Shown: piece after piece, positions 4,134 through 59,080 of the stretch
How positions within the stretch are numbered: the stretch's first letter is position 1
How the letters are laid out: each line of letters starts with the position of its first letter
Source: Patescibacteria group bacterium
GTDB taxonomy: Bacteria; Patescibacteriota; Patescibacteriia; Magasanikbacterales; GWA2-37-8
NCBI GenBank assembly: GCA_028705565.1
Contig: JAQWDH010000001.1
Span: 20,363-84,362 of the forward strand
Direction: 5' to 3'
Length of the DNA stretch: 64,000 bases
Translations under genes and position numbers: made by a program
The notes under the pieces: generated by a model
What the model was told of the DNA's origin: nothing
Seen by the model: the letters and a program-made list of their open reading frames with translations, nothing else
The model's database searches: none

Positions 4134-4243
4134 TGTCATTCCCGCCCCGTCATCCGACGGGGTAAACTCCAATTATTGTCATTCCCGCGAAAGCGGGAAT
4201 CCATATAATCGAACGATGGATTCCCGCTTTCGCGGGAATGACA
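4134..4243. repeat. Compound MITE-like element: two left arms (TGTCATTCCCGCC..., TGTCATTCCCGCGAAAGCGGGAATCC) and one right arm (GGATTCCCGCTTTCGCGGGAATGACA)
   Basis: Inverted repeats read directly; the 61-aa ORF 4117-4302 is translated from this repeat and is probably not a gene. Confidence 0.7.
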
Positions 4244-5695: not shown

Positions 5696-5830
5696 GTCTG
5701 TTTGTCTGTCAGATGGTCTAGGGTCTACAGTCTATGGTCTGCGGTCAATGGTCTGCGGTCAATGGTCTATGGTCAATAGTCCACTGTCTATAGTCTATAG
5801 TCCATCGTCCAAAATAGTCCATCGTCCAAA
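5696..5830. repeat. Degenerate tandem GTCYAYRG-type repeats (GGTCTATGGTCTGCGGTCAATGG...) between the two tRNAs
   Basis: Read directly; related tracts at 18361-18470 and 36340-36375. Confidence 0.6.
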
Positions 5831-5836
5831 ATACAT

Positions 5837-6197: not shown

Positions 6198-9100
6198 TTA
6201 TCCTCCTTGCGCGGAATTGATTTTTTTCTCAGTCCACGCTTTTGTTTTTATATGAAAAATACCTGTTCCTTTTTTGAGTTTTAGCGGTTTTAAAATTTCT
6301 TCCGCGTATATTTCTTGCAGACGGATAATTGCTTTTTTTGTAAGAGTTCCAAAATATCCGGATATTATTCCTTCGGGATAAATATCTTTGCCCATTGATT
6401 TAAGAAATATTTGCAGATATTTTACATCTTGTCCAACCGCGCCTCTCCACAAAAATCTTTCAAAAGAAAAATTATCCGGAATGCCGAGTGTTGTTTTTAA
6501 AGATGAGGAAACGGTTTGAATCGTTGAAGACGTCAAAATTGTTGAAGAAGCGAGATTGATATCTTTTTCAAGAGTTGACGTGGACAAAGTTGATGTCGTT
6601 GATGTGGCTGAACTTTCCCCGAAAACACCGTAAAGACCGAAATTTTTTGTTTTGGATGTTATTTCATTCGCAAGAGTATTGTCGCTTTTAAGAGGAACCC
6701 ATATTTTTTTTGTTTCGTCCCAACGATAAATTTCCATAGCGTTTTTTTTGATTTTACCGTTCTTTACCAATTCCTCATTGTAAGTAAATGAAAGTTTCAT
6801 TTCGTTGTTAATTTTTTCAATTTCTTTTCCTCCGACAATAGCTTTAATTTCCGAAACAATATCCCCAAGGATATTAAGATTGGTCGGGAGGGGGTGATTT
6901 TTTATAATTTCCATCGGGTCCAAAGTTATAATTTCCAGAACAGCGGTGCCGACAATACTTTGCGGCAGGAATTTTATAACGCCGGTCGCTCCGGATTGAA
7001 ATATTTTTTTCACTTCTCCACCGAGGTTTTCCGTAATGTTGCCAGAACCGGAAGATGATGATGGCGGTATAATGCCTCCACCTCCGCTGATAATCGCGAT
7101 TGTCCATGTTGATGTTGATTGCGTCTTGTTTCCTGCCTTATCCACGGCTTTTACATACCAAGTATGATTGCCGTTTCCGATTTTTGAAGATACGGTTTTT
7201 GAAACGCCGGTAAGATTATCGTCTTTCAAAACATTATCCACATAAAGTTCATAATGGTCAAAATCCGCATCAGACACGGCATTCCATATAAAAGTTGGCT
7301 GTTCATTTCCCAATGTTGAATAATCGCTTGGAGAAGATAATACAAAAGCGGACGGACCTTCGGTGTCTTCGGCCACGGTAAAAGTTTTTGCTGAAAATCC
7401 TCCGTTGTAAGTGAAAGTGATTTTACCGGCGGAGTCGGATTGGTAGGAATTAAAATGAGAACCGTCAACTTTTATTGAATACCATGTATTATTTTTTGAA
7501 ACAGCCACAACATAATCAATCGTGGTCGTGGAAATTGTGCTGGATGCCGTCCATTGGTCGGTATATCCGTTGGAAATGTCGCTGTCATTAAAAGCCAAAG
7601 TGATTTCTCCAATGGAAGGAATAATTTTTATTGTGTTTGTCGCGGCAGTGCCGAGTGTTAAACTTTTTGTGCTGGAAACATTTACAGTAAGAAGATTCGC
7701 CGCTACATTCATCCAATCCCACTCCGAAGTTGGCAAAACATTAAAAGAAGTTGAAAAGCCGCGCGTGGTCAAATCAAAATTTGCGTTGGTGGATGTTGGC
7801 GCGACATTTACAGCGCGAGTGGTGGAAGCGTTGGTTCCGGAAGTGTCACGGAGGTAAACAGTGTATTCATTGCTGCCTTCAGTTAATCCGGAAAATAAAA
7901 TAGACGGATTGCTGTAAACGCTTGCGTTGTAGGAAGCGCGAATCTCATCTTGTGAAAGCGCACGTTTCCAAACTCTTACTTCATCAAGCAAACCCTTGTA
8001 ATAAGCATACGCGTTGGAGCTTGGAACCGCGCCGTTTGTCCATCTGCCTAACTGGCTGTATCCATCATAATAATCGCATATATTTCCGGTTTGACTTACC
8101 GAGTCCTCTAAAATTCCGTTAAAATAAAATTTTATTGTCGTTCCATCGTATGTGACCGCCAAATGATTCCAAGTTGTGGTTGAAATATATGATGTGCTGC
8201 TTACAATCGGCCAGTCGGTGTTGTTCATGCATAATTGCGCCGCGGCTTCGGCGCGTATATCATTTTCGCCCAAGTCGGTGTAATCGGATTTCAAATACAT
8301 TTGGTATTGAGGAAAGTTGGCGATAAATGTGATGTTGTAATCAGAATCCACGGAAGTCGGTTTTATCCACGCTTCCACTGTCAAATCATCTCCTGTCATA
8401 TCAGTGGATGAAGGGCCGGTTAAAGAAACAAAGTCATCAATACCGTCAAAAAGCAAAGCGTTTCCGAATTTTCCTGCCGCCCATTGCGGTAAAGTTGTAT
8501 TCTTATAAATATGAAAACTGTCTCCGGTGGCAAAGCCGGTGAGCGCGGATGCCAAAGTAATGGTTTTATCCGTTTCGCTGGTCGCCGTATAATCGCTGAT
8601 AGTCGTGGTTGAACCATCCGCAGCCCCGGAAGTCGCTTCAAAAATCCAATTGTTATAAAAATCGTTATTTGTGCTGAGAACTATATAAGATGTTTCTTTT
8701 ATAACAGATTCCGTGGTGCCGGCATCGGCAGTGCCGTAATCGCCATAGTCAAATGTTCCTGTATGTCCGGCAATACTATCAGACACGGAAGTTCCGGAAG
8801 TTTCGTCAAATTTCCAATATCCTATCGGTTTGTTATCCCCCCAAGTAATGAACATACTTGAATCACCGGTGGAAGAGATCGTCATATTCAAAAGAGTCCA
8901 ACTTCTGTTGATATATGAACTATTATATTCAGTAGAAGAAGCGAAAGCGATTGACAGGCGAGCCGGCGTGCATAAAGAAGTGTCAACCGATAAACAATCA
9001 TCACGGCATCCGAGCGTTCCGCCCGTGTAGCTATAATCAACGCAAACAGCGTTTCCTGTGTCGTTGTCATCGCACACCTCGCCGGTTTCTTTGACTCCGT

Positions 9101-10862
9101 TTCCGCAATACGCGTCATATTCTGGAGCCGAACCCTCGTCTAAAAAATAGAGAATATAATTTTTCATTTCCGCGCGAATGGTATCCAAATTTTCATTTTT
9201 TAAATCCTTTTCTCTTAATTTACGCACATAATTTTCAGCAGAAACGGTTGATTTTACGCCATCAATTTTTGCTTGGGCGATTAAATTATTTAAAGTGGTT
9301 AAATATTTTACATCATCCACGCCTTCGCGAAATCCTTCCCATTGAACCGTGTCTATAACACCATCCGTTGTCGGGTAAGTAAACGCTCCATCTTTGCGAT
9401 CGACATAATCAAAATCATCCCAAATGTTTCCGTGATATGCTTGATAAGCCCAGTCGGCGGCGCCGTCATAACCGGCCTGCCAAAGCATCAATCCGTAATT
9501 TCTGCGGTATTTTTCAGGTCTTTCCTCGCCGCCTTGAGGGTCTGCGTAAGAATATATTTTATTGCCATAGCTGTGGTATGTTGCCGCAAGATCTGGACGC
9601 AACACGCCATAAACTATCGCTATATCTAAAATATCAGCGGCTCTTTCAGCCATTGAATAATTTGCTTGCGCGTCAATAACTTTTCCGCCGACATCGTGCA
9701 CGGCTTCAATTTGCGCGCGAGTGGTAGTGCTAATTTCCTGCTCATCATACCCGTAACAATAAACATCAACATCTCCGTTAAGAGTCGTAGTCGCGATATT
9801 TATTGTGCTTGTAACCGCGGCTTGCGTTAGCGCGTTGGTGGCATATCCGGCCAAACTGCATCCAACATAAAAAAGCGTAGTAGTGTCCATACCGACTGAA
9901 TTGGCGATTGTAAGCGCGTCGTCAAGACTTCCGTCATTAGGCGCGGCTTGATATTGCGCATAATATAAAGGAGCTGTAATACCATGATTGTATAAATTTT
10001 GCAGCTCAGCGGTGAATTGAGCAGTATTTTTCCAATCTCCTGAAATCTCGCTGTATCCGCTGACATGGAGTCTGCTTGCGTAATAAAAAGAATAAGTTAG
10101 CGACGGCGAGTCCAAAGTAATCGGCAACACCGTAAGATTAAAAGTAAGATTTTTTGTGAAGACATCGGATGTAAGCTGAATTTGTCCGTTGTAAGTCCCG
10201 GCGGTTGTGGTGGTCGGCACTTCCACCGTAATCCAAATTTGTTTATTCGTGTTTGCTGTAATATCAATCGGTTGAAGTTCGGATGTATCTTCAATATGAA
10301 ATTCCGATGGAAGCATGTGCCACTGGTCCGCGACGCCTGAAATGCCGCTTGCGTTGCTTATTAAAACATAGGAGCCGTCCACCAAAGCGTAGTTTTGCGA
10401 ATCTTCAGTTTTAATCAAGTCGTCATTTTTGACAAGCAGTTCCGGCGTCAAATGTTTGTTGGAAACATCATAAAGAGTATATCCTGTTTGATACCAAATT
10501 TTTACAACTCTGATGTCCAAACTGCTTGAGGCAATCGTGCCGTTGTCTCCAATCAAATCAGTTGAAGTGACATTTAAACCTGTAATGGTTTCATTCGCGT
10601 GAATAACAAAAGTTGCGGGTTCAAATTCGCCAGGAGCCGCGCTCATGGTAATCGTGTCGGAAATATATTCGCTTGAAATACTTGAATCAGCGAGTATTTT
10701 TGTGTCCGTTATGGTTGAAGGAACGTAAATTGTCGCTGAACTGGAAGAGGCGAAAATAATATTGTAAAAAAAAGCGGACAAAGGCAAACAGACGATTGAT
10801 ACAAAAAAAATCGATAAAAATCTAAAAATTTTAGAGCGTCTTTTACGTTCTATAAAAATCAT
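6198..10862 (-). CDS. Giant (1554 aa) secreted/cell-surface protein with a glycoside-hydrolase-like region, LamG/concanavalin-like domain, Ig/FN3-like repeats and a C-terminal peptidoglycan-binding (PG_binding_1-like) domain
   Basis: N-terminal TM/signal. LamG-like motif ...GKFGNALLFDGIDDFVSLTG...DDLTVEAWIKP. C-terminal LWRGAVGQDVKYLQIFLKSMG...GYFGTLTKKAIIRLQ matches the PG-binding pattern. Confidence 0.55.
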   Translation of the reverse strand: MIFIERKRRSKIFRFLSIFFVSIVCLPLSAFFYNIIFASSSSATIYVPSTITDTKILADSSISSEYISDTITMSAAPGEFEPATFVIHANETITGLNVTSTDLIGDNGTIASSSLDIRVVKIWYQTGYTLYDVSNKHLTPELLVKNDDLIKTEDSQNYALVDGSYVLISNASGISGVADQWHMLPSEFHIEDTSELQPIDITANTNKQIWITVEVPTTTTAGTYNGQIQLTSDVFTKNLTFNLTVLPITLDSPSLTYSFYYASRLHVSGYSEISGDWKNTAQFTAELQNLYNHGITAPLYYAQYQAAPNDGSLDDALTIANSVGMDTTTLFYVGCSLAGYATNALTQAAVTSTINIATTTLNGDVDVYCYGYDEQEISTTTRAQIEAVHDVGGKVIDAQANYSMAERAADILDIAIVYGVLRPDLAATYHSYGNKIYSYADPQGGEERPEKYRRNYGLMLWQAGYDGAADWAYQAYHGNIWDDFDYVDRKDGAFTYPTTDGVIDTVQWEGFREGVDDVKYLTTLNNLIAQAKIDGVKSTVSAENYVRKLREKDLKNENLDTIRAEMKNYILYFLDEGSAPEYDAYCGNGVKETGEVCDDNDTGNAVCVDYSYTGGTLGCRDDCLSVDTSLCTPARLSIAFASSTEYNSSYINRSWTLLNMTISSTGDSSMFITWGDNKPIGYWKFDETSGTSVSDSIAGHTGTFDYGDYGTADAGTTESVIKETSYIVLSTNNDFYNNWIFEATSGAADGSTTTISDYTATSETDKTITLASALTGFATGDSFHIYKNTTLPQWAAGKFGNALLFDGIDDFVSLTGPSSTDMTGDDLTVEAWIKPTSVDSDYNITFIANFPQYQMYLKSDYTDLGENDIRAEAAAQLCMNNTDWPIVSSTSYISTTTWNHLAVTYDGTTIKFYFNGILEDSVSQTGNICDYYDGYSQLGRWTNGAVPSSNAYAYYKGLLDEVRVWKRALSQDEIRASYNASVYSNPSILFSGLTEGSNEYTVYLRDTSGTNASTTRAVNVAPTSTNANFDLTTRGFSTSFNVLPTSEWDWMNVAANLLTVNVSSTKSLTLGTAATNTIKIIPSIGEITLAFNDSDISNGYTDQWTASSTISTTTIDYVVAVSKNNTWYSIKVDGSHFNSYQSDSAGKITFTYNGGFSAKTFTVAEDTEGPSAFVLSSPSDYSTLGNEQPTFIWNAVSDADFDHYELYVDNVLKDDNLTGVSKTVSSKIGNGNHTWYVKAVDKAGNKTQSTSTWTIAIISGGGGIIPPSSSSGSGNITENLGGEVKKIFQSGATGVIKFLPQSIVGTAVLEIITLDPMEIIKNHPLPTNLNILGDIVSEIKAIVGGKEIEKINNEMKLSFTYNEELVKNGKIKKNAMEIYRWDETKKIWVPLKSDNTLANEITSKTKNFGLYGVFGESSATSTTSTLSTSTLEKDINLASSTILTSSTIQTVSSSLKTTLGIPDNFSFERFLWRGAVGQDVKYLQIFLKSMGKDIYPEGIISGYFGTLTKKAIIRLQEIYAEEILKPLKLKKGTGIFHIKTKAWTEKKINSAQGG

Positions 10863-11988: not shown

Positions 11989-13431
11989 TTAAGGTTGAGC
12001 AACCGGATTGTTTGATTTAGGAGGGCGAGATATTATTTCTTTTATTGTTTCTTTGGAAATAATGTTGAGAAGCAAGGCTAAAACACCATAAATTATTATC
12101 CCAAACGCGATTGATAAGACGATATTCATCGGTTGAAGGAGATAAACCGATACGCCCATTGTCAAACTCGCGAGAGATATCTTGAAAAAAGTTTTAAAAC
12201 TTGGCCAAAATCGCGCGAAGCGATTAACCGTAATCATTAAAAATAAACCGGCGTAAATTTCAGAAAAAACAGTCACCATCGCCGCGCCATAAGCGCCGTA
12301 TTTCGGGATTAAAAACGCGTAAGCGATCGCGCTTAAAATCGCGTCGGAAAGATAAATCCAAATCACATTTTTTTGTCTGTTTATCGCCAAGGCCAAATAT
12401 CCAAAGACATTTCCAAAAGCAGTGCCAACAATGGCGATGCCGAGCAGTGCGAGTATTTTACCGGAGTTTACGAATTCGTTGCCGGCAATAAGTTTCATAA
12501 TTGGAGTCGCGAGCGTAATAATACCGACAGCCATTGGTATAAGCAACATCAAGATTAAATCAAAACTTCTTTGGTAATGGAGCTTGAATTCATCGCGAAG
12601 ATTTTGCGACCAAGCGCGCGCGGTAAGAGGCAGCATTATTCCCATTACCATGGCGGCAACCTGTATTACTATTTCAGTGACGCGATACGCGGCGCCTGCT
12701 AATCCAACTTCGCTTTGCGAAACAAATAGAGGCAGTAAAATTCTTCCGCCTTGCAGATAAACGGCGTTGAAGATAATTTCAATCGCCATCGGCCAAGTTT
12801 TATAATAAAGCGCGCGTGATATTCCCCAATCAATTTGAAAACGAATTTTTTGACTTTTGAGCCAAAGAAAAACAGTATAAATTAAAGATGACGTTGAAAC
12901 AATCGCCATCATCGGCAAAAATCCATCGTAATTTTTATAAGCAATGGCGAAGATGCCGACAAGCATTGTCGCTCGGGATAAAAATTCTCCGATAACCTGA
13001 ATGTGCATTTTTAATTTTGTTTGATAATATCCGACAAGCACTTGATTCAAAGCAGTGCTGAAAAAAGAAACAGAAAGAATGGCCGCGGCGATTTTGACCG
13101 GAGCTGGATATGGAAAAAACAGGATTAAAATCGGAGACAAGCCGTTGAAAAAAAACGCGGTTAAAAATCTCCATGTAAAAAGAGTGTTGTAAATTTTTTG
13201 TTTATCAAATTTTTCTTCAGAAAGCATGCTCGCGGTATTGGCTGTAAATCCGAAATCGTTCGCCACCGCGATAAATTGCAAAAAACTGCTGGCGGTCACA
13301 AACCAGCCGAATTTTTCCACGCCCAAAGAGCGGGTCATCAAAGCCACAATTAAAAGCCCGATTCCCGTGTTTAGCGATTTTCCGGCAAGTTGAATTGCCG
13401 TGTTGAAAGCGATTTGCCGTTTTAGAGACAT
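11989..13431 (-). CDS. Polysaccharide biosynthesis protein / oligosaccharide flippase (Wzx-like, MOP superfamily)
   Basis: About 12-14 TM helices, typical length and hydrophobicity. Start placed at MSLKRQIAFN; the ORF-track N-terminus (VIGHWSL)n is a translation of the upstream heptanucleotide repeat. Confidence 0.6.
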   Translation of the reverse strand: MSLKRQIAFNTAIQLAGKSLNTGIGLLIVALMTRSLGVEKFGWFVTASSFLQFIAVANDFGFTANTASMLSEEKFDKQKIYNTLFTWRFLTAFFFNGLSPILILFFPYPAPVKIAAAILSVSFFSTALNQVLVGYYQTKLKMHIQVIGEFLSRATMLVGIFAIAYKNYDGFLPMMAIVSTSSLIYTVFLWLKSQKIRFQIDWGISRALYYKTWPMAIEIIFNAVYLQGGRILLPLFVSQSEVGLAGAAYRVTEIVIQVAAMVMGIMLPLTARAWSQNLRDEFKLHYQRSFDLILMLLIPMAVGIITLATPIMKLIAGNEFVNSGKILALLGIAIVGTAFGNVFGYLALAINRQKNVIWIYLSDAILSAIAYAFLIPKYGAYGAAMVTVFSEIYAGLFLMITVNRFARFWPSFKTFFKISLASLTMGVSVYLLQPMNIVLSIAFGIIIYGVLALLLNIISKETIKEIISRPPKSNNPVAQP

Positions 13432-13488
13432 AAAATAAATCCCAAATCCCCTGCCTACCGGTTTACATACCGTAGGTATGCAGGCAGG

Positions 13489-13580
13489 CAATGACCAATG
13501 ACCAATGACCAATGACCAATGACCAATGACCAATGACCAATGACCAATGACCAATGACCAATGACCAATGACCAATGACC
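13489..13580. repeat. Tandem heptanucleotide repeat (CAATGAC/GTCATTG) x ~13 at the 5' end of the flippase gene
   Basis: Read directly; in frame with the flippase ORF as (VIGHWSL)n. Confidence 0.9.
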
Positions 13581-13620
13581 GTTTAATTTCATATTCATTT
13601 TACCGCTTTTTTGGAATAAA

Positions 13621-13650
13621 AAAAAGCCCTGAATTAAGGGCTGTTGTCGT
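13621..13650 (-). terminator. Rho-independent terminator for the 13651-13908 gene (minus-strand AGCCCT-TAATTC-AGGGCT + TTTTTTTT)
   Basis: Hairpin plus T-run on the minus strand. Confidence 0.5.
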
Positions 13651-13908
13651 TTATTCCTTTTTTTCCTCTTTTACCTCGCCAACTCCTTTCATCAGCCATA
13701 TTAACAATAATATCAACAACGAGATATCAATCAAAAGCCCGAGGAAAACGGATACTCCGAATAGTACGGAGATTTTATTTACAGTAGCATAAAGGTGCAG
13801 TGTCGGAATTGCGCCGATAGTGAGGGAATATCCGACAAAAAAAACAAACCATCCGAAAATTTTTAATACAATTTTTCCGATTTTTTTCATTTTTTCTCCT
13901 TTGTTCAA
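13651..13908 (-). CDS. Small hypothetical membrane protein (2-3 TM)
   Basis: Hydrophobic helices; short. Confidence 0.35.
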   Translation of the reverse strand: MNKGEKMKKIGKIVLKIFGWFVFFVGYSLTIGAIPTLHLYATVNKISVLFGVSVFLGLLIDISLLILLLIWLMKGVGEVKEEKKE

Positions 13909-13999
13909 GGTGCTGAATGTATAATAACAAAAACCGAAGTATTGTCAACAACACACAGACGGGAAGGAATTATTATGTTATAATGGCTATAGACGTTTT

Positions 14000-18263: not shown

Positions 18264-18330
18264 TGTCATTCCCGTGAAAACGGGAATCTGTTGTCTGATT
18301 GTATGGATTCCCGTTTTCACGGGAATGACA
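18264..18330. repeat. MITE-like element TGTCATTCCCGTGAAAACGGGAATC ... GGATTCCCGTTTTCACGGGAATGACA
   Basis: Perfect ~25-bp inverted arms, each itself palindromic. Confidence 0.7.
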
Positions 18331-18360: not shown

Positions 18361-18470
18361 AACAAAGTCCACTGCTTGTTACGGTCTATGGACTATGGTC
18401 TGCGGACTATGGTCTATGGTCTATAGTCTATGGTCCAACGTCCAACGTCCACAGTCCACGTCCGATTTCC
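18361..18470. repeat. Degenerate GTCYAYGG / GTCCAACGTCCA tandem repeat tract
   Basis: Read directly; same family as 5696-5830. Confidence 0.6.
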
Positions 18471-18528
18471 CTGTGGATAAAATAAGTTGACAATATTCGT
18501 TAAATTATTTTCTAATTTTTTAAAAATT

Positions 18529-18560: not shown

Positions 18561-18641
18561 TTATACTAAGGTTGCGGCGGATGAATTATAAATTACAAAT
18601 TATAAATACGATAAAAACTACAAATTTAAAAATTTAAATTT

Positions 18642-20785: not shown

Positions 20786-20851
20786 TGTCATTCCCGCGAA
20801 AGTGGGAATCCATTTGCGATTGTTTGGATCCCCGTTTTCACGGGGATGACA
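20786..20851. repeat. MITE-like element TGTCATTCCCGCGAAAGTGGGAATCC ... GGATCCCCGTTTTCACGGGGATGACA
   Basis: Inverted arms read directly. Confidence 0.65.
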
Positions 20852-20914
20852 ATTGCGATCGTCCGAATCCCGACATGGTCGGAATGGCGACACATTACTT
20901 ATTAATTTCGTTTT

Positions 20915-21616: not shown

Positions 21617-21687
21617 AACAAAAAAAACGAGTAAAAAAAGAACCCACCCTCGGCGATTATGTTTAAATCGTCAAGAGTGGGTGTATT

Positions 21688-21727
21688 GGGTCAAACAATT
21701 CTTTTGGATGGCCTTGTTTGACACGAC
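21688..21727. repeat. Hairpin repeat copy 1 (GGGTCAAACAATTC...GGCCTTGTTTGACAC)
   Basis: 9-bp stem GTCAAACAA/TTGTTTGAC; three copies within 640 bp. Confidence 0.7.
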
Positions 21728-21736
21728 TATTTTTTT

Positions 21737-21880
21737 TTATTTTTTCTCTTCTTCTTCTTCTTCTACATCCTCTTCGTCTTCTTCTACTACTACTACTACT
21801 TTTCTTTCTTCTTCAATTTTCTCCAGCTCTCTTTCGAGAGCTTTTTCCCATTCTTTAAAATCATAATATTCTTCACTCAT
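21737..21880 (-). CDS. Possible small acidic protein (MSEEYYDFKEWEK...EEEEEEKK)
   Basis: ORF with a purine-rich stretch upstream (aaaggaaaaaaaagag); low complexity, may be spurious. Confidence 0.2.
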   Translation of the reverse strand: MSEEYYDFKEWEKALERELEKIEEERKVVVVVEEDEEDVEEEEEEKK

Positions 21881-21894
21881 CTCTTTTTTTTCCT

Positions 21895-21960
21895 TTCCGC
21901 TTTTAAAGCGGATTTGTTGTTGGGTCAAACAATTCCTTGGGATGGCCTTGTTTGACGCGG
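21895..21960. repeat. Hairpin repeat copy 2, preceded by a CCGCTTTTAAAGCGG hairpin
   Basis: About 65-bp unit shared with copy 3. Confidence 0.7.
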
Positions 21961-22249
21961 TTAAGAACAATGGATGGTTATTATATTAAAGAAAGAGATC
22001 TTTTGATTTTATGCATCCTTTGTTCTATAATATGACGTATTATCTTCTCTGTTATTTTTATATTGTCCATATCAGGAAACGGGGGTGTATGCCCCGCTAT
22101 AATAGACATACAATATAGGTCTATTATAGTATATATAAAATTTTTTTCGTCCTCCTTTTCTTGTGAAAAAAAATTTTTATATTCATTACACTTTTGTTTC
22201 CCCTCCTCCCTGTTTTTTTTGTTATGGTTTTTTCTCATCCTTCCTCTCT

Positions 22250-22320
22250 CTTCCGCTTTTAAATAAAGCGGATTGGTTGTGGGTCAAACAATTCCAGTAT
22301 GGCCTTGTTTGACGCGACAA
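22250..22320. repeat. Hairpin repeat copy 3, preceded by a CCGCTTTTAAATAAAGCGG hairpin
   Basis: Same unit as copy 2. Confidence 0.7.
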
Positions 22321-30641: not shown

Positions 30642-30672
30642 ATTGTAGGCAGTGGACGGTGGACGGTTGGCG

Positions 30673-30714
30673 ATGAATTATGAATTATGAATTATGAATA
30701 ATGAATTACGAATG
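30673..30714. repeat. Tandem heptanucleotide (ATGAATT) x ~6 spanning the start codon of the first pilin-like gene
   Basis: atgaatt atgaatt atgaatt atgaata atgaatt acgaatg, read directly. Confidence 0.85.
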
Positions 30715-36260: not shown

Positions 36261-36382
36261 GAAATTTGTTTAAAACAAAACATACCAAATATAATAATAC
36301 ATTTTGGCGAAAAAATCAAGGGAGTGGTATAATAAACGGATGATGGACGGGCGGACTATGGACTATGGACTGTAGACGATGC

Positions 36383-36396
36383 TGTCATCCCGAATG
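36383..36396. repeat. Fragment of a TGTCATCCCGAATG element, preceded by a GGACTATGG repeat tract (36340-36375)
   Basis: Read directly. Confidence 0.4.
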
Positions 36397-36484: not shown

Positions 36485-36826
36485 ATGTTTAAAAAATTTT
36501 TATTAATTTTATCGGTTGGTATTTTGATTTGCGTTCCGGCGTTCGCGCGCGATTATGGTTTGCAAGAAACCGGCTCTGTCGCGGAATATTCGCAATCTTC
36601 CGTTTATAAATCTGCCAACAGCATTGTGTCGGTGTTTTTGTCGATTTTGGCGATTTTATTTTTAGGTCTGATGCTGTATTCGGGAATTCGCTGGATGACG
36701 GCGCACGGCAATGAGGAAATGTTGACCAAAGCCAAAAATATAATGGAAGCCGCGATAATCGGATTGATTATAGTAGTGGCGTCTTACGCAATTTCAAATT
36801 TTATTCTTGAACGCCTTATACAATAG
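36485..36826 (+). CDS. VirB2/TrbC-like pilin paralogue 8 (separated from the array by the UgtP-like gene and tRNAs)
   Basis: ...FLSILAILFLGLMLYSGIRWMTAHGNEEMLTKAKNIMEAAIIGLIIVVASYAISNFI. Confidence 0.55.
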   Translation: MFKKFLLILSVGILICVPAFARDYGLQETGSVAEYSQSSVYKSANSIVSVFLSILAILFLGLMLYSGIRWMTAHGNEEMLTKAKNIMEAAIIGLIIVVASYAISNFILERLIQ

Positions 36827-36858: not shown

Positions 36859-36892
36859 GGACAGAGATCCCTCTCTGCCGTTCGGGATGACA
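36859..36892. repeat. Right arm of a MITE-like element (GGACAGAGATCCCTCTCTGCCGTTCGGGATGACA)
   Basis: Matches positions 11-43. Confidence 0.6.
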
Positions 36893-37032
36893 GTATCGTC
36901 CACCGTCCACCGTATTGACATTTTTTGGGAATAGGAGTAATATTGAGGTGTTTAATAATTCCGCGTTATTTATAAGCGGGACCGAACTGTTAGGAAACAT
37001 GCTCTTAACGAGCTCGGTTAACAAAAGCATGT

Positions 37033-45925: not shown

Positions 45926-46488
45926 ATCTCTCTTGTCATAAAAATCTCTCTTTTTAGGAGAGCCAAGTCCAAAATAAAATCGCGAAAGCAAGTTTGGACC
46001 TCTGGGTAAAGTCCTTAACGGACGCTTTAATATCAAATAAAAAATGTTACAGATATTAAATATTTACTTAGAGTGTTCAAGCGGCTGACGCCATACTTTT
46101 GGCGAATAGTTTTGAAGGCCGCTGTCAAGCGGTTCTTTATTTTTTAAAAATGATTTTGAACGGAGCAAAAAATTTTCGCGAATGAAAATTTTTTGCCTCG
46201 TTCAAAACGATTGAAAAGAATTGAGCGGGTGTAAGAACTTTGACAATCAATTAGTAAGTTTCAACAAAAAGGGTAGAACTCCCGCGCTGATTTTATTCGC
46301 GCGGGAAAAATAAGAAAGCACAATTTAGTGTTTTCGTAGTATGCAATTTTAACAAGAGCGCATGGCGGATGCCTTGACACCAAAAGACGATGAAGGACGC
46401 TGCAGGGTGCGATAAGCCTCGGAGAGGTCCCAAGCAACCTTTGACCCGGGGATTTCCAAATGGGGAAACCCGCCGGTGCGTAGCACCG

Positions 46489-46600
46489 GAATTTACCAAT
46501 TTACAATTTTCAATTTACAATCAACTCCAATTATCAATAATTTATTGAAAATTGCCGCATTGTAAATTTATTGAAAATAATTGAAAATTCCAGTGTTATG
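46489..46600 (+). other. 23S intervening sequence 1 (AT-rich CAATTT-repeat hairpin in the E. coli helix ~130-150 region)
   Basis: Insertion relative to conserved flanks GGGGAAACCC ... CTGAATACATAGG. Confidence 0.55.
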
Positions 46601-47154
46601 CATCGGCACTGTACACTGAATACATAGGTGTATGGAGAAGACCTGGCGAAGTGAAACATCTCAGTAGCCAGAGGAAAATAAATCTATAGAGATTCCCTTA
46701 GTAGTGGCGAGCGAAAAGGGAAAAGCTTAAACCATATAAGTGTTTCTTTGAGAATGATTGGTCTTAGGATTAGTCTAGTATTAAAGATTAAAGGGATAGG
46801 TCGTTGCTTATATGGGGTTGTAAGATATTGGCGCTGACTGCCTACTCAGTCAGATGATTGAATAACCTTCCTAGTAGAATGCTCTGGAAAGAGCAACCAT
46901 AGAGGGTGATAGTCCCGTACGCGAAAGGAGTTACAAAATCATAGCCGTTATTCTTGAGTAGGACGGAACTCGTGAAATTCCGTCCGAAGCCGGGCCGACT
47001 ATGGTCCAAAGCTAAATACTTTTGGTGATCGATAGTGGACAAGTACCACGAGGGAAAGGTGAAAAGCAGCCCGGAGAGGGCGATGAAATAGTATCTGAAA
47101 CCGTGCGTTTACAAAGAGCGGAAGGTCAACCACATCTCGCTTTGTTTGATGTGG

Positions 47155-47215
47155 AATTTCCAATTTCCAATTTATTTAGTTATTGATTTTTGGAGTTTGG
47201 TAATTCTTACACGTC
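47155..47215 (+). other. 23S intervening sequence 2 (GGAATTTCCAATTTCCAATTT... at the helix-25 region)
   Basis: Insertion at a classical IVS site; same motif family. Confidence 0.5.
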
Positions 47216-47757
47216 AAATGAAGTGAGATGTGGCGACCGACCGTGTTCCTATTGAAGAATGAGCCTGCGAGTGTATGTGTGCCGCTTTGCTTAAGGGCCT
47301 ATGGTCCGGAGGCGTAGCGAAAGCGAGTCTTAACGGGCGTATACCTTGTATCTTTATGGTGCGAGGTTTGTGGCACGTATATAACCCGAAACCGGGTGAG
47401 CTATCCATGACCAGGATGAACCCCGCCGAAAGGCGGGGGGAGGTCCGAACCCACGCGCCGTGCAACACGCGGGGATGAGTTGTGGATGGGAGAGAAATTC
47501 TAATCGAACTCGGTGATAGCTGGTTCTCCTCGAAATAGCTGTAGGGCTAGCCTCAAATGTTTCTATCGGTGGTAGAGCACTGGATGAAAATCGGGTCCTT
47601 CGGGATACCATTTTCAATCAAACTCCGAATACCGGTAGCCAAAATTTGGGAGTCAGACAGTGACGGCTAAGCGCCATTGTCAAAAGGGAAACAGCCCAGA
47701 TCGCAAGCTAAGGCCCCTAAATCCATGTTAAGTGTAACAAAGGTGGTTCTAGTTCTC

Positions 47758-47794
<37 letters not shown>

Positions 47795-47924
47795 TAAAGA
47801 AAGCGTAACAGCTCACTGGTCAAGAGTTTTAGCGCCGAAAATGTACGGGACTCAAACATGGTGCCGAAGCTGCGGACTATCCGTGCTTCACTAATGTTCA
47901 GCACAAATTTTCAAGTATCCTGCC

Positions 47925-48045
47925 TACCGGCAGGTAATTATCAATTTTCAATCAATTATCCAATTATCAATTTTTAAATTTCATTTTGGGTCATTAAAAT
48001 TTATTGAAAATTGTAAATTGTAAATTTTGTGGCGAGCGTTAGCGA
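47925..48045 (+). other. 23S intervening sequence 3 (helix-45 region, ~E. coli 1170)
   Basis: AT-rich CAATTATC/CAATTTT repeat hairpin between conserved blocks. Confidence 0.5.
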
Positions 48046-48552
48046 GGCACGGGTATTGGTAGAGGAGCGTTCCTAACTGCGCAGAAGTCCTAGGCGTGAG
48101 CCGGGATGGAGTGTTAGGAAGCGAGAATGCAGGCATAAGTAGCAAAAAGGCAGGTGAGAATCCTGCCCGCCGAAAACCCAAGGTTTCCTGGGCAACGAGA
48201 ATCGACCCAGGGTTAGCCGATCCTAAGGCCAGCCCGTCGCAAGGCGGGGTAACCGATGGAAGAGCTGGTTAATATTCCAGCGCTATATGCAGTTTGGTTT
48301 TTACTGCGCATCTTTAATTTTTAAGCGTGTTTTGGTTATACGCGCGCCGCAAGGCGGAGACAAAGCCCTCGGGTGGAGTCAACTTAAAATAACAAGGTGC
48401 CTAGAAAAGGTAAAAATCGTTAAGCTGCATGTAATCGTACCGTAAACCGACACAGGTGGGTAAGTCGAGTAGACTAAGGCGTATGAGAGAACCCTCGTTA
48501 AGGAACTCTGCAATACAGCGGCCGTAACTTCGGGATAAGGCCTGTCCGACCG

Positions 48553-48692
48553 TGCCTCACTGCGTTTGACGCGGAATGACCAATATAATTTTCAATTACC
48601 AATTTTCAATTTAAGAGTCCGACCGAGTCGGACACAATAGTTGATCATTGGAAATTGGAATTTGGAAATTCCGCCCGAGCATAGCGAGGTGC
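48553..48692 (+). other. 23S intervening sequence 4, a ~140-bp element (copy A)
   Basis: CCTCACTGCGTTTGACGCGGAATGACCAAT...GTCCGACCGAGTCGGAC...GGAAATTCCGCCCGAGCATAGCGAGGTGCGG. Confidence 0.6.
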
Positions 48693-48817
48693 GGTTGGAT
48701 TACAACAAAAGACCTCAAGCGACTGTTTACCAAAAACACAGCTCCCTGCAAAAGCGTAAGCTGAAGTATAGGGGGTGATGCCTGGCCAGTGTCAGAACGT
48801 TAAAGAGAGAGGTGAGC

Positions 48818-48957
48818 CGTACCTCACTGCGTTTGGTACGGAATGACCAATTTTCAATTACCAATTTTCAATTTAAGAGTCCGGTCGAGCCGGACACAAT
48901 AATTGATCATTGGAAATTGGAATTTGGAAATTCCGCCCGAGCATAGCGAGGTGCGGC
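48818..48957 (+). other. 23S intervening sequence 5, a near-identical second copy (copy B) of the 140-bp element in a different helix
   Basis: About 95% identical to copy A; separated by genuine 23S sequence (GACTGTTTACCAAAAACACAG). Confidence 0.6.
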
Positions 48958-49569
48958 GTAGCCTTGAACTGAAGCGCTGATGAACGCCGGCGGTAACTAT
49001 AACCGTCCTAAGGTAGCGCAATTCCTTGTCGGGTGAGTTCCGACGCGCATGAATGGTATAACGATTTGAGGACTGTCTCAACGAGGGACTCAGTGAAATT
49101 GCAAGGAAGGTGAAGATGCCTTCTACCCGCAACTAGACGAAAAGACCCCGTGAAGCTTTACTACAACTTGGCATTGGTATAAGGTTAAATATGTTCAGAG
49201 TAGGTGGAATCCCGACTTAGTCGGGAGACAATGAGACACCACCCTTACTTAATTTTATGCCTAATCTTCCGACTTGAATCAGCCGGAGGAGACAGTGTCT
49301 GGTGGGTAGTTTAACTGGGGCGGTTGCCTCCTAAAATGTAACGGAGGCGTTTACAAAGGTCAGCTTAGCTCGGATGGAAATCGAGCTGGACGTGCAAACG
49401 CAAAAGCTGGCTTTACTGCAAGGGCTACAACCCGAGCAGTCGCGAAAGCGGAAGTTAGTGAACCGACCATCCTATATAGGAAGGTGGAAGATCAACGGAT
49501 AAAAGCTACTCCGGGGATAACAGGCTGATCTAGCCCGATAGTCCACATAGACGGCTAGGTTTGGCACCT

Positions 49570-50420
49570 TAATACATCGGGGTGCTGCAGTAGTGATACT
49601 GCACCAAAAATTCGGCTTATAACGGTGAACCCGTCATTAAATGTATGGTATAATTAAAATAATAATCCATTTAATCGGCAACACCGTGGGAAGTCTTAAT
49701 CAAACACAAAAATCAATACTTATCGGAAGTCTCTTGGGAGATGGAAATTTGAGATTGGCAGAAGGAAAAACAAATGCTTTGTTTGAAGTAAATCATTCAA
49801 TCAAACAAAAATTGTATGTTGATTGGAAATATAATCAATTACGCCCATTCATTTTAACGGCTCCGAAAGCGAGAAGTTGTAATGGAAAACGAATTGCTTA
49901 TCGGTTTACGACACGCAGTTTGCCTGTATTTACTTCGCTCTACAGGGAATTCTACAGGGATAGTATAAAAGTAATTCCTTGTAATCTCACATTGACACCA
50001 TTAGCGCTCGCGGTATGGTTTATGGACGATGGCAGTAAAAGCCGTTCATCTATTTATCTAAACACGCAGCAATTCAACATTGAAGAACAAATTCGTTTGC
50101 TTCAATTATTGAAAAAGCAATTTAACTTGTCAGGCGCGCTAAATAAGGACAAGAAGTATTTTCGTATAAGAATAACATCGTCAAGCACAGCGCTATTTAA
50201 AGAAATAGTGCGGCCGTATGTTATAAAAATTTTTAATTATAAACTTGATTAATGACCCCGTAACGACTGACCCGAAAGGGGAGGTTCCGACCTTTTATGT
50301 CGGAACAACACGCCGACGCTTGTTTTACAAAAACCGAGATTATGCCGTTTAAGTCGGCTACGATCCGGAACAAGCAGAAGATATAGTCTACCCCATGAGA
50401 AATCATGGAATAATCGACAG
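49570..50420 (+). mobile_element. Group-I-type intron in the 23S rRNA (inserted after GGCACCT, near E. coli position ~2449) encoding a LAGLIDADG homing endonuclease
   Basis: Exon sequence GGCACCT | ... | CGATGTCGGCTCATC is interrupted by 851 bp containing the ORF; intron ends in G. Confidence 0.75.
49641..50252 (+). CDS. LAGLIDADG-family homing endonuclease (intron-encoded)
   Basis: Two LAGLIDADG-like motifs ([11 protein letters not shown] and [10 protein letters not shown]). Confidence 0.75.
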
Positions 50421-50467
<47 letters not shown>

Positions 50468-50480
50468 TGGCTGTTCGCCA

Positions 50481-50532
<52 letters not shown>

Positions 50533-50906
50533 CTATCTGTTGCGGGCGTTGAACATTGAGAAGACTCACTCCTAGTACGAGAGGACCGGAGCGGACGAAC
50601 CTCTAGTGTACCAGTTGTCCTACCAAGGGCATTGCTGGGTAGCTACGTTCGGCACGGATAAACGCTGAAAGCATCTAAGCGTGAAGCCGTCTTCAAGATT
50701 AATGTTCGTCATAGACTCCTTGTAGACTACAAGGTTGATAGGCGCTATGTGTAAGTTTAGTAATAAACTGAGCAGAGGCGTACTAATAAGTCAAGCATAC
50801 TACGAAAGCGCTAAGCGGTGCTTTTTGCACCCTTTTAAGTCCGCCCTGTCTGCCGACAGGCAGGCTTTGGCGGAAAGCCATTATAAAACAAAATTGAGTA
50901 TGAAGT

Positions 50907-50961
<55 letters not shown>

Positions 50962-51022
50962 CCCGCCAGAGGCGGGTCCGCCTTTGGCGGAAAGCCATTA
51001 TAAAACAAAATTGAGTATGAAG

Positions 51023-51132
<110 letters not shown>

Positions 51133-55847: not shown

Positions 55848-56727
55848 TTTAACAATTTTGACAACGCGCGCGGAAAACGATTACGAGCTTTTGGACAGCG
55901 GAGAAAACGAAAAATTGGAACGATATGGAAAATATGTTTTATCCCGTCCGGACCCGCAGGCGTTATGGCCGAAAATGTTAAAAAAAGAAGCGTGGCAAAA
56001 AGCAGACGCTGTTTTTTCGCATGAAAGCAAAGGCGGTTTTTGGAAATTAAAACTCGGTGTGCCGGAGAAATGGAAAATTGAGTTTGGCGGTTTGAAATTT
56101 TGGATTCGGCCGACTGTTTTTAAACATACGGGTTTATTTCCGGAGCAGGCGAGTAATTGGGACTGGATTTATAAACTAATCCATAGTCAAAAGTCCATAG
56201 TCAGCAGACATATCAACATACTTAATTTATTCGGCTACACAGGCGGAGCCACGCTCGCGGCGGCGAGAGCCGGCGCCGATGTATGTCATGTTGACGGTTC
56301 TAAAACAGCTATCGGTTGGGCGAGAGAAAATGCCGAATTATCAGGGTTGGCAGACAAACCGATTCGTTGGATTTTGGATGACGCCGCGACTTTTGTTCGC
56401 CGAGAAATAAAGCGCGAAAAAAAATATGACGGAATTATTATGGACCCGCCCGCCTTTGGGCACGGACCAAACAAAGAGATGTGGAAAATAGAAGAGAATT
56501 TTTTGAATTTGTTGGAGTTGTGCGAACAAATTTTATCCGATGAGCCGTTGTTTTTTCTTATCAACGGTTATGCTTCCGGATATTCGTCCATCGCGTATGA
56601 AAATAATTTATTGGCGTTGAAAAAGAAATACGGCGGAGAGATTGAAAAAGGGGAATTAACTATCGCGGAATCAAAAGGCGAGCGGCTGTTGCCTTGTGGT
56701 ATTTTCGCTCGGTGGAGTAAATCGTGA
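55840..56727 (+). CDS. Class I SAM-dependent (r)RNA methyltransferase, RlmI/YccW-like
   Basis: LNLFGYTGGATLAAARAGADVCHVDGS SAM-binding motif; ...IMDPPAFG catalytic motif. Confidence 0.55.
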   Translation: MSDLTILTTRAENDYELLDSGENEKLERYGKYVLSRPDPQALWPKMLKKEAWQKADAVFSHESKGGFWKLKLGVPEKWKIEFGGLKFWIRPTVFKHTGLFPEQASNWDWIYKLIHSQKSIVSRHINILNLFGYTGGATLAAARAGADVCHVDGSKTAIGWARENAELSGLADKPIRWILDDAATFVRREIKREKKYDGIIMDPPAFGHGPNKEMWKIEENFLNLLELCEQILSDEPLFFLINGYASGYSSIAYENNLLALKKKYGGEIEKGELTIAESKGERLLPCGIFARWSKS

Positions 56728-57299: not shown

Positions 57300-57545
57300 A
57301 TTTCAGCCAACGTTCGCCATATTCGATGTTTTTGCGACCAACGGGAGCAAAAACATGGGAGAGGAAAATGGCGATTCCATTGAAAAAATTATTTATCGCC
57401 ATTTTCTGAACCGCATATATTGTGTTAGGCGTTGTAAAATTTTTACACTTTTTGTTTTTTTTTCGCTTACAGTTCAATCACGGGGGGCAAGGGGGGCCGA
57501 ATCCGTTCACTCAATATGGCGAAGGGGCAGAGACCTGCCCGCATA
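57300..57545. repeat. ~215-bp element copy A with terminal inverted repeats (TTCGCCATATTCGA ... TCAATATGGCGAAGG), 3' of fic
   Basis: About 90% identical to 58855-59080; internal 12-bp perfect hairpin GAAAATGGCGAT/ATCGCCATTTTC. Confidence 0.7.
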
Positions 57546-57618
57546 CCTACGGTATGTAAACCGGTAGGCAGGCAGGGGTAAGTGGGGTATGCTCTATAGC
57601 CATATCAATTATAATATT

Positions 57619-58530
57619 TTAGATGTGCTTTTCTGGTTTGTTTTTATCACTTTTTTGCGTGACACCAATTTTCCACACGCCTTTTTCCAGAAAGGCTTCT
57701 ATTGTCTGGCGCGTAGCTTTATTGATCAAATTAGAGTGTGAAATTTTATTCATTTTTCCATATTCAGCGAGTGTCATAATCTGCGCGCCCTCTAAATACG
57801 CCAGCCGTTTGTGGTAACTATTGGTAAGCGCCTTGCCGACTATTTCTTCCATAATATCCGTCGCGCCTTTGGCATCAAATTCTCTAAACGCTTCATAATA
57901 TTTATTTCTGTCAATAAATTTGATGTTTATCGGCACGAATCCTTCACGTATCAATAAATAATTATTTATTACACGTCCAATTCGGCCGTTACCGTCGCAA
58001 AATGGGTGGGTATATTCAAAAGCCAGATGCAATTTTGCAATCCTCTTGATTATATTTTCATGGCTCGTGGCATTGTATTCGGAAAGCATTTTTTCCAGCC
58101 GACCGACTACTTCTTTGGGGTTAGGAGCGATATGGCTGCCAACGCGCACAAATTCATTATCTTTTCTAAATCTTCCGGCAATATCATCACGGATATTTAA
58201 AATCAACATTTTATGAAGTGACAAAATTATTTCCAGGGTAAGCTCCTGTTCTTTGGCTCTTTGGTCAATATATGTTACTACTCGCGCTAAATTTTTTGCC
58301 TCAAACATTTCTCGTTCAGAGATGTATCGATCCAAATCTATCTGTAAAAGTATTTTTTCGGTTTCTTCCAATGTGAGTGTGCTGTTTTCGATAGCATTAG
58401 AGTTGTATACTTGCTCGGCTACTTCGGCTTCGCTGATTAACTTTAAAAGCGCCTGTTTACCAACAGCCACGGTATAGAAGCGTTCTCTTAATTTGGAGAT
58501 TGTGTTAAAAATATGTAGTATTTTAGGCAT
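57619..58530 (-). CDS. fic: Fic-family protein (putative AMPylator) with an intramolecular inhibitory motif
   Basis: Canonical HPFCDGNGRIGR Fic motif; upstream SNAIEN matches the (S/T)xxxE(G/N) inhibitory helix. Confidence 0.85.
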   Translation of the reverse strand: MPKILHIFNTISKLRERFYTVAVGKQALLKLISEAEVAEQVYNSNAIENSTLTLEETEKILLQIDLDRYISEREMFEAKNLARVVTYIDQRAKEQELTLEIILSLHKMLILNIRDDIAGRFRKDNEFVRVGSHIAPNPKEVVGRLEKMLSEYNATSHENIIKRIAKLHLAFEYTHPFCDGNGRIGRVINNYLLIREGFVPINIKFIDRNKYYEAFREFDAKGATDIMEEIVGKALTNSYHKRLAYLEGAQIMTLAEYGKMNKISHSNLINKATRQTIEAFLEKGVWKIGVTQKSDKNKPEKHI

Positions 58531-58854: not shown

Positions 58855-59080
58855 CGTTCCAGCGTATGCGATGTTTTTGCGACCAACGGGAGCAAAAATA
58901 TGGGAGAAGAAAATGGCGATGCCATTGAAAATAATATTTATCGCTATTTTCTGAACCGCATATACCGTGTTAGGCGTTGTAAAATTTTTACACTTTTTGT
59001 TTTTTTCGTTCGTCGTTCAATTGTGGGGGGGGGCGAATCCGTTCACTCAATATGGCGAAGGGGCAGAGGGGGTAGGGGTG
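58855..59080. repeat. ~215-bp element copy B, between fic and the AAA-ATPase gene
   Basis: Direct repeat of copy A. Confidence 0.7.

Follow-up and report, generated by a model that had tools for sequence, protein, structure and literature searches.

Does a perfect heptanucleotide repeat that adjoins a gene for a Wzx-like flippase act as a switch for that gene, or is it one member of a wider family of repeats? The question was raised by a 64,000-nucleotide stretch of DNA from a Patescibacteria group bacterium (GenBank assembly GCA_028705565.1, contig JAQWDH010000001.1, positions 20,363 to 84,362 of the forward strand; hereafter the window), in which thirteen copies of CAATGAC lie 5′ of a flippase gene of the MOP superfamily. 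The original prediction, made from the letters alone, had read the repeat as in frame with the gene and had likened the arrangement to a contingency locus. From the analysis reported here, the array is probably a variable-number tandem repeat (VNTR) of a lineage-specific, genome-wide heptamer family, neutral or at most weakly modulatory.

The Array and Its Family

The array was delimited with Tandem Repeats Finder (TRF; period 7, 13.1 copies, 100% matches, 0 indels, score 184, unit CAATGAC) and confirmed by direct reading of the raw sequence. On the flippase (minus) strand the unit reads GTCATTG or, in another register, TTGGTCA. When lags of 4–12 were compared in 28–35-nt sliding windows over the window and one related contig, strong tandem self-similarity was found at lag 7 alone. 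The length of the array is far beyond chance. The order on the gene strand is promoter, 79-aa open reading frame (ORF), terminator, AT-rich spacer, array, GC-rich hairpin, 18-nt leader and the flippase ATG at 13431 (Table 1). The array is situated outside the coding sequence (CDS), between the upstream promoter and terminator on one side and the ATG on the other, and not between a −35 and a −10 hexamer. On the predicted gene boundaries it is located in non-coding DNA.

Related repeats were found elsewhere in the window. For the pattern GTCN4GTCN4GTC, 31 occurrences were counted where 0.11 would be expected; they are spread over five loci and both strands. The units GGTCTAT, GGTCAAT, CGTCCAC and ATAGTCC were common to several loci. 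Shorter heptamer runs were located at 30652–30667 and 36897–36913. The locations of the arrays (a tRNA spacer, divergent promoter regions and a leader) are predominantly non-coding; the only case within an ORF is a 3-unit trace at 56186–56202. The flippase array is the longest member of this GTC-phased family and its sole perfect one. In the related contig L001 (our handle, as for the contigs below) the tRNA-spacer array is 14 nt shorter and the ruvB–nrdD array 21 nt longer than in the window. Since these sister arrays vary in 7-nt steps, whole-unit slippage would be a property of the family, and since the tRNA-spacer array is inside a transcription unit, such arrays appear to be tolerated in RNA. 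All four defining features of a heptamer family of simple sequence repeats (SSRs) were thus present: tandem 7-nt units, kin at multiple loci, an intergenic position and whole-unit length polymorphism.

Outside this lineage the repeats were not recovered. The GTC-heptad family was absent from approximately 106 kb of other Magasanikbacteria, and no array was found at the flippase-orthologous loci of ten other Magasanikbacteria, where the GC-rich hairpin occurred only in L005; conservation of the array upstream of the flippase was ruled out on this ground. The closest relatives keep the order RuvB–bPH–SpoIID–flippase–AI-2E, without array, hairpin or small ORF 5′ of the flippase. On the genomes sampled, the family is confined to one Candidatus Magasanikbacteria species of the candidate phyla radiation (CPR). 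A surface-gene-specific feature, as had been supposed, does not accord with GTC-phased kin at a tRNA spacer, ruvB, nrdD and tRNA-Arg, nor with the lack of conservation in syntenic relatives.

Table 1. Coordinates of the flippase locus and of related elements in the window
Feature	Position	Strand	Basis or remark
MOP-superfamily (Wzx-like) flippase CDS, 480 aa, start MSLKRQ	11989..13431	-	Pfam, orthologs, NCBI annotation
A/U-rich leader GGATTTGGGATTTATTTT, 18 nt, without clear Shine-Dalgarno sequence	13432..13449	-	Sequence
39-nt GC-rich palindromic hairpin CCTGCCTG[CATACCTACGGTATGTAAA]CCGGTAGGCAGG, contiguous with the array	13450..13488	-	Inverted-repeat pair I4
Perfect heptanucleotide array, (GTCATTG)x13 on the gene strand, (CAATGAC)x13.1 on the plus strand	13489..13580	-	TRF and sequence
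AT-rich spacer, terminator to array	13581..13624	-	Sequence
Hairpin AGCCCTTAATTCAGGGCT with a T8 tail, resembling an intrinsic terminator, 3′ of the small ORF	13625..13642	-	Kept in L001
79-aa small membrane ORF, lineage-specific, good Shine-Dalgarno sequence (AAGGAG)	13651..13890	-	ORF list, sequence; 5′ of the array
Near-consensus sigma-70 promoter TTGACA-16-TG-TATTAT, 11/12	13921..13948	-	Promoter scan; also in L001
Second 39-nt hairpin copy including the 19-nt loop insert, no adjoining heptamer array	57534..57572	+	97%, one mismatch
Degenerate GTC-phased array filling the tRNA-Gly/tRNA-Met spacer	5705..5833	+	Within a unit running from an 11/12 promoter to a terminator
Degenerate GTC-phased array (GGTCTAT, CGTCCAA units) between divergent ruvB/nrdD promoters	18366..18472	+	
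Short GTC-phased array (ATAGTCC units on the minus strand)	36340..36381	-	About 20 nt 5′ of the predicted tRNA-Arg promoter −35
Short CGTCCAC array abutting (1 nt) the −35 TTGACA of the predicted promoter 36915–36943	36897..36913	+	

Copy Number in Related Assemblies

Related assemblies were reached through the AI-2E transporter, the small ORF and cluster member P0108; the AI-2E transporter protein was identical to that of the window in four independent assemblies. Three units were present in JGI 3300029288 (L001) and in ENA ERZ27247363 (L002), both with approximately 97% identity to the window, a hairpin that lacks the 19-nt loop insert and, by alignment, 11 additional T-rich nt within the leader before the ATG. 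The short hairpin and the 11 extra nt were also found in SRR8542065 (L004; approximately 97% identity), whose contig begins inside the array and holds only part of it. Four units, with a short hairpin and a window-type leader, were present in SRR22315507 (L015; 95–98% identity). Run SRR22315502 yielded two contigs: L003, 100% identical to the window, begins inside the hairpin and has no array, and L014, which matches the window over the stretch read, stops after 30 nt of pure repeat. The break in L014 is explained by an array that exceeds the assembler k-mer of 31, so that this strain would carry more than four units; Logan assemblies use a k-mer of about 31.

Exactly 70 nt separate the window allele from the 3-copy allele, and the lengths of the 13-, 3- and 4-copy alleles differ by exact multiples of 7. 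Copy number, which the original prediction had proposed to compare across related assemblies, was thus 3, 4 or 13 rather than fixed. As judged from these contigs the array gains and loses whole units among strains, and slipped-strand mispairing at replication would account for the change. The variation was seen between strains that are 95–98% identical and not within a clone. A metagenome scan with the 27-nt left flank matched only the JGI contig L001, and look-ups with the SpoIID protein and the solute-binding protein matched only a run that was already covered; neither gave further alleles.

The related contigs also differ from the window in nearby coding sequence. In L015 (791–1267) a stop codon takes the place of a Trp codon of the window and closes the flippase frame (…IYTIFL*; window, …IYTVFLW…). 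The stop is 9 nt short of the contig end and could reflect either a nonsense allele or an error at the end of the contig. A gene for a 1554-aa protein with GH123, LamG, Big_13 and PG-binding domains (window 6198–10862) is present in the window and in L003 and absent from the approximately 97% identical L001. In its place L001 carries 184 nt (9063–9247), a strain-specific indel of a large surface-protein gene two genes from the flippase.

Flippase Gene and Reading Frame

The flippase was matched by the Pfam families Polysacc_synt_3 (2e-16) and Polysacc_synt (1.3e-08) and fell well short of the NCBIfam thresholds that define the MurJ and Wzx_EPS equivalogs. By these scores it is a generic MOP-superfamily member with one conserved ortholog across Magasanikbacteria. 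The closest genome matches to the protein came from Candidatus Magasanikbacteria and Patescibacteria metagenome-assembled genomes (MAGs), at 40–51% identity, and metagenomic proteins reached 59%. An exact look-up of the 480-aa protein returned no match, though the protein is present in the clustered database. Other features of the window are consistent with a CPR origin, namely an expanded 23S rRNA with a LAGLIDADG ORF, an anaerobic ribonucleotide reductase and a cluster of T4SS-pilin-like paralogs. The neighbors of the flippase encode an AI-2E-family transporter, the 1554-aa GH123/LamG protein, a SpoIID-domain protein and RuvB; a domain search of these neighbors found no glycosyltransferase cluster. 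With a single conserved ortholog and no such cluster alongside, the flippase may serve a conserved core function.

MSLKRQ, which the original prediction had named as the more conventional start, was borne out as the true one. Its ATG at 13431 lies 57 nt downstream of the array end. Eight orthologs begin at an aligned M-S-x-x-[RK]-x-I-A-x-N-T, and the sequence upstream of it is unrelated, short and devoid of a Shine-Dalgarno (SD) sequence. The NCBI annotation likewise gives 480 aa from MSLKRQ in two MAGs; other pipelines called 502 aa (JGI) and 449 aa. The (VIGHWSL)n extension at the N terminus is, on the evidence of these starts, an artefact of ORF calling.

The codons of (GTCATTG)n are GTC, ATT, GGT, CAT, TGG, TCA and TTG, and 0 of the 7 is a stop codon. 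Because 7 and 3 are coprime, all three minus-strand frames read the same seven codons, and because none is a stop the frame into the CDS is open at any copy number. The statement that the array is "in frame" with the flippase is therefore uninformative, and there is no fixed upstream start to be shifted. The translation (VIGHWSL)n is a real reading of the DNA and a trivial consequence of a stop-free heptamer. The companion claim, that a change in copy number would shift the frame of an upstream initiation, fails as well, since no frame closes and both the orthologs and the NCBI annotation start at MSLKRQ. Lying outside the conserved coding sequence, the array cannot serve as a translational frame-shift switch.

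Transcription and Predicted RNA Structure

The promoter at 13948–13921 is the sole strong promoter 5′ of the pair formed by the small ORF and the flippase. The remaining promoters of the window are of canonical form and have the −35 hexamer TTGACA. In the window allele a consensus promoter scan from the terminator to the flippase ATG found none; the spacer holds a single −10-like hexamer, TAAAAT (13602–13597), with no acceptable −35. Since no consensus promoter lies between terminator and ATG, the array is probably transcribed, in leader or intercistronic RNA. Transcription of the flippase may proceed by terminator read-through from the upstream promoter or from the weak TAAAAT site, and in either case the array would be part of a long leader or intercistronic RNA. 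A search of the leader against Rfam found no known RNA family. The small ORF, called as a gene in L001, L014 and L015 and absent from the syntenic L019, had no Pfam or NCBIfam match.

In the 3-copy allele (L001) a weak promoter-like site, TAGGCA-18-TATTAT (9/12), was found downstream of the array; it is removed by an 11-nt deletion in the window and L015 alleles. A control through promoter spacing was considered and rejected, since the window allele has no −35/−10 pair spanning the array or lying 3′ of it, and the L001 site is uncorrelated with copy number.

The predicted fold energy was −55.7 kcal/mol for the sense leader, −29.2 for the antisense and −25.5 for the 3-copy leader. In the sense fold, UGGUCA segments of the array pair with one another by means of G·U pairs, and the GC-rich hairpin follows. 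Among 60 rotation classes of the same composition, (GUCAUUG)13 ranked 49th, at −23.2 kcal/mol against a median of −36.3. No pairing of the array with downstream sequence was seen in the minimum free energy structure, and the predicted accessibility of the start region (AUG) was flat at 0.40–0.44 across 0–20 units. An RNA-structure hypothesis, for which the sense fold had looked suggestive, was dropped after the composition control and the flat accessibility. These controls remove the apparent significance of the sense fold and leave a mechanism of the type known from the Haemophilus influenzae hmw genes without in silico support; in these models, control dependent on copy number is not supported. 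No effect on the flippase is required; any such effect would be graded, by way of leader length or structure.

GC-rich Hairpin and Other Palindromes

The hairpin beside the array is stable in the predicted RNA fold. The 19 nt shown in brackets in Table 1, CATACCTACGGTATGTAAA, are a strain-specific loop insert, and the short form CCTGCCTGCCGGTAGGCAGG is found in L001, L002, L004 and L015. This 19-nt core is exact at both hairpin sites in the window, where 0.01 chance matches would be expected. The 32-bp element that had been noted as recurring at 57545–57580 does recur; its extent was revised to the 39-nt palindromic hairpin, with a second copy at 57534–57572. In the distant relative L005 the same GC-rich hairpin lies between a TGnTAAAAT −10 and the ATG of the flippase ortholog, which supports a leader location for the hairpin.

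The GC-rich hairpin next to the flippase array, CCTGCCTGCCGG-N-AGGCAGG, forms a dispersed palindrome family (window 47919–47938 and 50845–50864; L005 5932–5951; L009 12040–12059), whose copies occur within the rRNA operon, next to it, and in distantly related Magasanikbacteria. Further repeat elements were observed. A 142-nt direct repeat of 94% identity (57320–57461 and 58865–59006) flanks a Fic-domain gene (57619–58530); its first copy is 5′ of the second 39-nt hairpin, which falls between the repeats. An element of about 67 nt, a double palindrome built from TGTCATTCCCGCGAAAGCGGGAATCCAT, was located at 4177–4243, 18264–18330 and 20786–20852 in intergenic positions that include the ruvB leader. 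Its ATTCCC-N8-GGGAAT core presumably resembles the neisserial dRS3 consensus. Inverted arms of 29 nt, 90% complementary (36366–36394 and 36881–36909), flank a small pilin-like gene at approximately 36487–36826. They consist of heptamers and the end of the palindromic element TGTCATCCCGAA (full copy at 2709–2802), and the gene with its arms may be an invertible cassette or resemble a miniature inverted-repeat transposable element.

Comparison With Known Repeat Systems

Heptanucleotides are described as the most abundant class of long SSRs in many bacterial genomes (Mrazek et al. 2007, cited through PMC4679880 and PMC4692102). These papers describe genome-wide intergenic heptamer families, among them the STRR of Calothrix and Nostoc, GGGAATC in Xanthomonas and TAACTGA in Beggiatoaceae, cyanobacteria and Bacteroidetes, and report for such families 7-nt-step indels between close strains, assembly breaks and a patchy phylogenetic distribution. 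The repeats described here resemble these STRR and long-SSR families in their tandem 7-nt units, in the many intergenic loci with related units, in having perfect and degenerate arrays in both orientations, in their frequent position near gene starts or promoters, and in their 7-nt indels, assembly breaks and lineage-specific patchiness. They differ in their CPR/Patescibacteria host and in an in-phase GTC core where the others have TAACTGA or G-runs. The arrays here are, furthermore, often paired with short GC-rich palindromes, and AT-rich heptamer arrays are also found in 23S rRNA expansions. A literature search found no report of such heptamer families in CPR bacteria. The gene-strand unit TTGGTCA is presumably the STRR2 unit of Mazel et al. 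1990.

The hmw1A and hmw2A genes of H. influenzae carry an (ATCTTTC)n repeat in the 5′ untranslated region (UTR) that acts as a phase-variable rheostat (PMC12721329, PMC8262952). There, experiments have shown both that the repeat pairs with a downstream G-rich arm to give an RNase III substrate and that expression drops as n rises (PMC12721329). The flippase locus shares with hmw a 7-nt SSR of similar length range that is 5′ of a surface-related gene and between the upstream promoter and the start codon, a polymorphic copy number and a stable hairpin in the same leader. Unlike the hmw repeat, the flippase array pairs only with itself, no better than random heptamers of the same composition; the modelled AUG accessibility is independent of n; and the repeat belongs to a genome-wide family rather than being a locus-specific device.

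The contingency loci of Haemophilus and Neisseria likewise have an SSR next to an envelope-glycan gene. Their tetranucleotide or homopolymer tracts, in lipooligosaccharide and capsule genes, lie in the reading frame or between −35 and −10 and switch expression ON or OFF, whereas the array described here is outside the CDS, open in all frames and not between promoter hexamers. In the ctxAB promoter of Vibrio cholerae, TTTTGAT heptads are bound by ToxR and their copy number differs between strains. Like the ctxAB heptads, several sister arrays in the window lie upstream of a promoter, and they end right at its −35 hexamer; the flippase array differs in having no downstream promoter in the window allele.

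Alternative Explanations

Of the proposed contingency-locus architecture, the perfect and variable SSR adjoining a Wzx-like flippase stands, and the frame argument and the locus specificity do not. A dedicated role as a surface-gene switch is unproven. The array could nevertheless be a true contingency locus that works as a rheostat, located in the 5′ leader of the flippase or between the gene and its promoter, with unit number setting expression and a surface glycan varying in a heritable yet reversible way; this was judged unlikely, without being far-fetched. The position between the upstream promoter and terminator and the ATG, the polymorphic copy number, the status of the array as the only perfect and expanded member of its family and the Wzx-like product of the downstream gene all agree with a rheostat. 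The sense RNA of the array is moreover predicted to be able to form a long quasi-duplex beside a stable hairpin, and hmw provides a precedent for a 7-nt SSR in a 5′ UTR that can work in this manner (PMC12721329, PMC8262952). These points are offset by the poor rank in self-folding, by the AUG accessibility that does not respond to unit number, by the lack of pairing with a downstream region such as occurs in hmw, by a gene that is a single conserved ortholog without an adjoining glycosyltransferase cluster, and by syntenic relatives that have no array. The sister arrays at housekeeping loci vary likewise, so that variability alone is no sign of selection for switching. Several observations nonetheless weigh against a neutral or weakly modulatory VNTR or limit how firmly it can be held. 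A perfect 13-unit array by a surface-related gene, in a region with a strain-specific gene for a 1554-aa surface protein, is compatible with selection on expression variants. The variation is between strains only and not within a clone, the exact count of 13 rests on one assembly, and with the weak promoter-like site downstream of the array in the 3-copy allele the array might go untranscribed with the gene in some alleles.

The other explanations carry less weight than a rheostat. The GTC arrays and GC palindromes might together form an actively amplifying, lineage-specific CPR repeat system in leaders, tRNA spacers and 23S expansion segments. Such a system would act on RNA, for instance by providing modules through which a double-strand RNase or an RNA-binding protein governs the processing or stability of transcripts. 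This reading is distinctly unlikely; if true, the flippase array would be a tunable expression module, a contingency-type mechanism in an episymbiotic lineage of reduced genome where none has been described. Very doubtful is a role of the GTC heptads as iterated sites for a DNA-binding protein (a transcription factor or a nucleoid protein), with the flippase array as a high-occupancy site controlling local transcription. The GTC core is kept in phase at five loci while other positions drift, several arrays end 0–60 nt 5′ of a predicted −35 (the 36915, nrdD, ruvB and tRNA-Arg promoters), and the ctx heptads offer a precedent (bioRxiv 10.1101/2021.05.14.444153). However, the window allele showed no promoter 3′ of the flippase array, one array is inside a tRNA operon, both orientations are represented among the arrays, no candidate for the binding protein was found, and common descent of the units with slippage could also account for the conserved core. 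That the 13-copy length is an artefact of a repeat collapsed or inflated in a metagenome-assembled contig is very improbable. Short-read assemblies do break at the array site, and no second assembly spans a 13-copy allele; against this, typical reads and large k-mers exceed the 92 nt of the array, the same-strain k=31 assembly ends after 30 nt of pure repeat and so requires more than four copies, and the 3- and 4-copy arrays were assembled through in four independent data sets. By these assemblies the repeat and its polymorphism are real even if "13" is off by a few units. A translational ON/OFF switch, with initiation at a codon such as TTG within the array or 5′ of it, and the flippase frame shifted by a change of one unit, is extremely improbable. 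The ORF is indeed open through the array up to a TTG at 13575, and the JGI gene caller gave a 502-aa, N-terminally extended protein. Yet the three open frames carry the same seven codons, no ATG occurs within the array and no SD before it, the orthologs and the NCBI 480-aa call agree on a downstream start, and the 3-, 4- and 13-copy alleles, which differ by 7 and 70 nt (not multiples of 3), keep the same downstream ORF; on these alleles and orthologs such a switch is already contradicted.

Other Repeats in the Window

AT-rich heptamers, AAATTAC and AAATTAT, were observed in SD-less leaders directly 5′ of start codons, for example that of nrdD (window 18584–18640; L008 395–430; L009 3988–4025). 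Several Magasanikbacteria carry them, and they are reminiscent of the TAACTGA repeats found close to start codons in Beggiatoaceae. An (ATGAATT)x5.9 array at 30673–30713 is placed just before the likely start (ATG at approximately 30711, MTKIFTS...) of a T4SS-pilin-like gene. Each of its units holds an ATG and a TGA, and ATGAATT is also found before efp in a distant relative (L018 15494–15530). A (TCT)n tract of 22.7 copies and 80% identity lies at 21747–21814, and near it the 40-nt motif TTGGGTCAAACAATTC…GGCCTTGTTTGAC occurs three times within 21686–22316.

The 23S rRNA gene measures 4.46 kb (46342–50806) against a 2.9-kb model. Expansions of 120 nt and 62 nt were placed near model positions 139 and 282, respectively, and another near 583 in the helix-25 region (from window position 47128, approximately); an ORF for a LAGLIDADG_2 homing endonuclease is contained in the gene (49641–50252). 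The expansions hold composites of a hairpin and an AT-rich heptamer array, with units AATTTAC, AATTTCC, AATTATC and ATTGGAA; the inverted arrays at 46498–46541 and 47983–48026 may be able to base-pair. A perfect 117-nt direct duplication of 1.8 copies (50865–51078) covers the 23S–5S spacer and the 5′ part of the 5S gene (full 5S at 51025–51131). It would leave a truncated extra 5S copy upstream, and may be real or an assembly artefact.

Implications

CPR bacteria (Patescibacteria) are thought to live attached to host cells. Variation at their surface is of interest for this reason, and a variable SSR before a flippase gene would be a cheap route to it, if regulatory. The flippase array is not yet evidence of such regulation; it is well suited to testing directly whether an SSR regulates a gene in a CPR organism. 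What the repeats document is one Magasanikbacteria species with hypervariable heptamer arrays of the type found in cyanobacteria, Xanthomonas and giant sulfur bacteria. Such arrays are useful as strain markers. They also cause assembly breaks and yield N-terminal mis-annotation, as seen in the 502-, 480- and 449-aa calls for one gene. They are one more instance of the unexplained tendency of replication slippage in bacteria to favor units of 7 nt.

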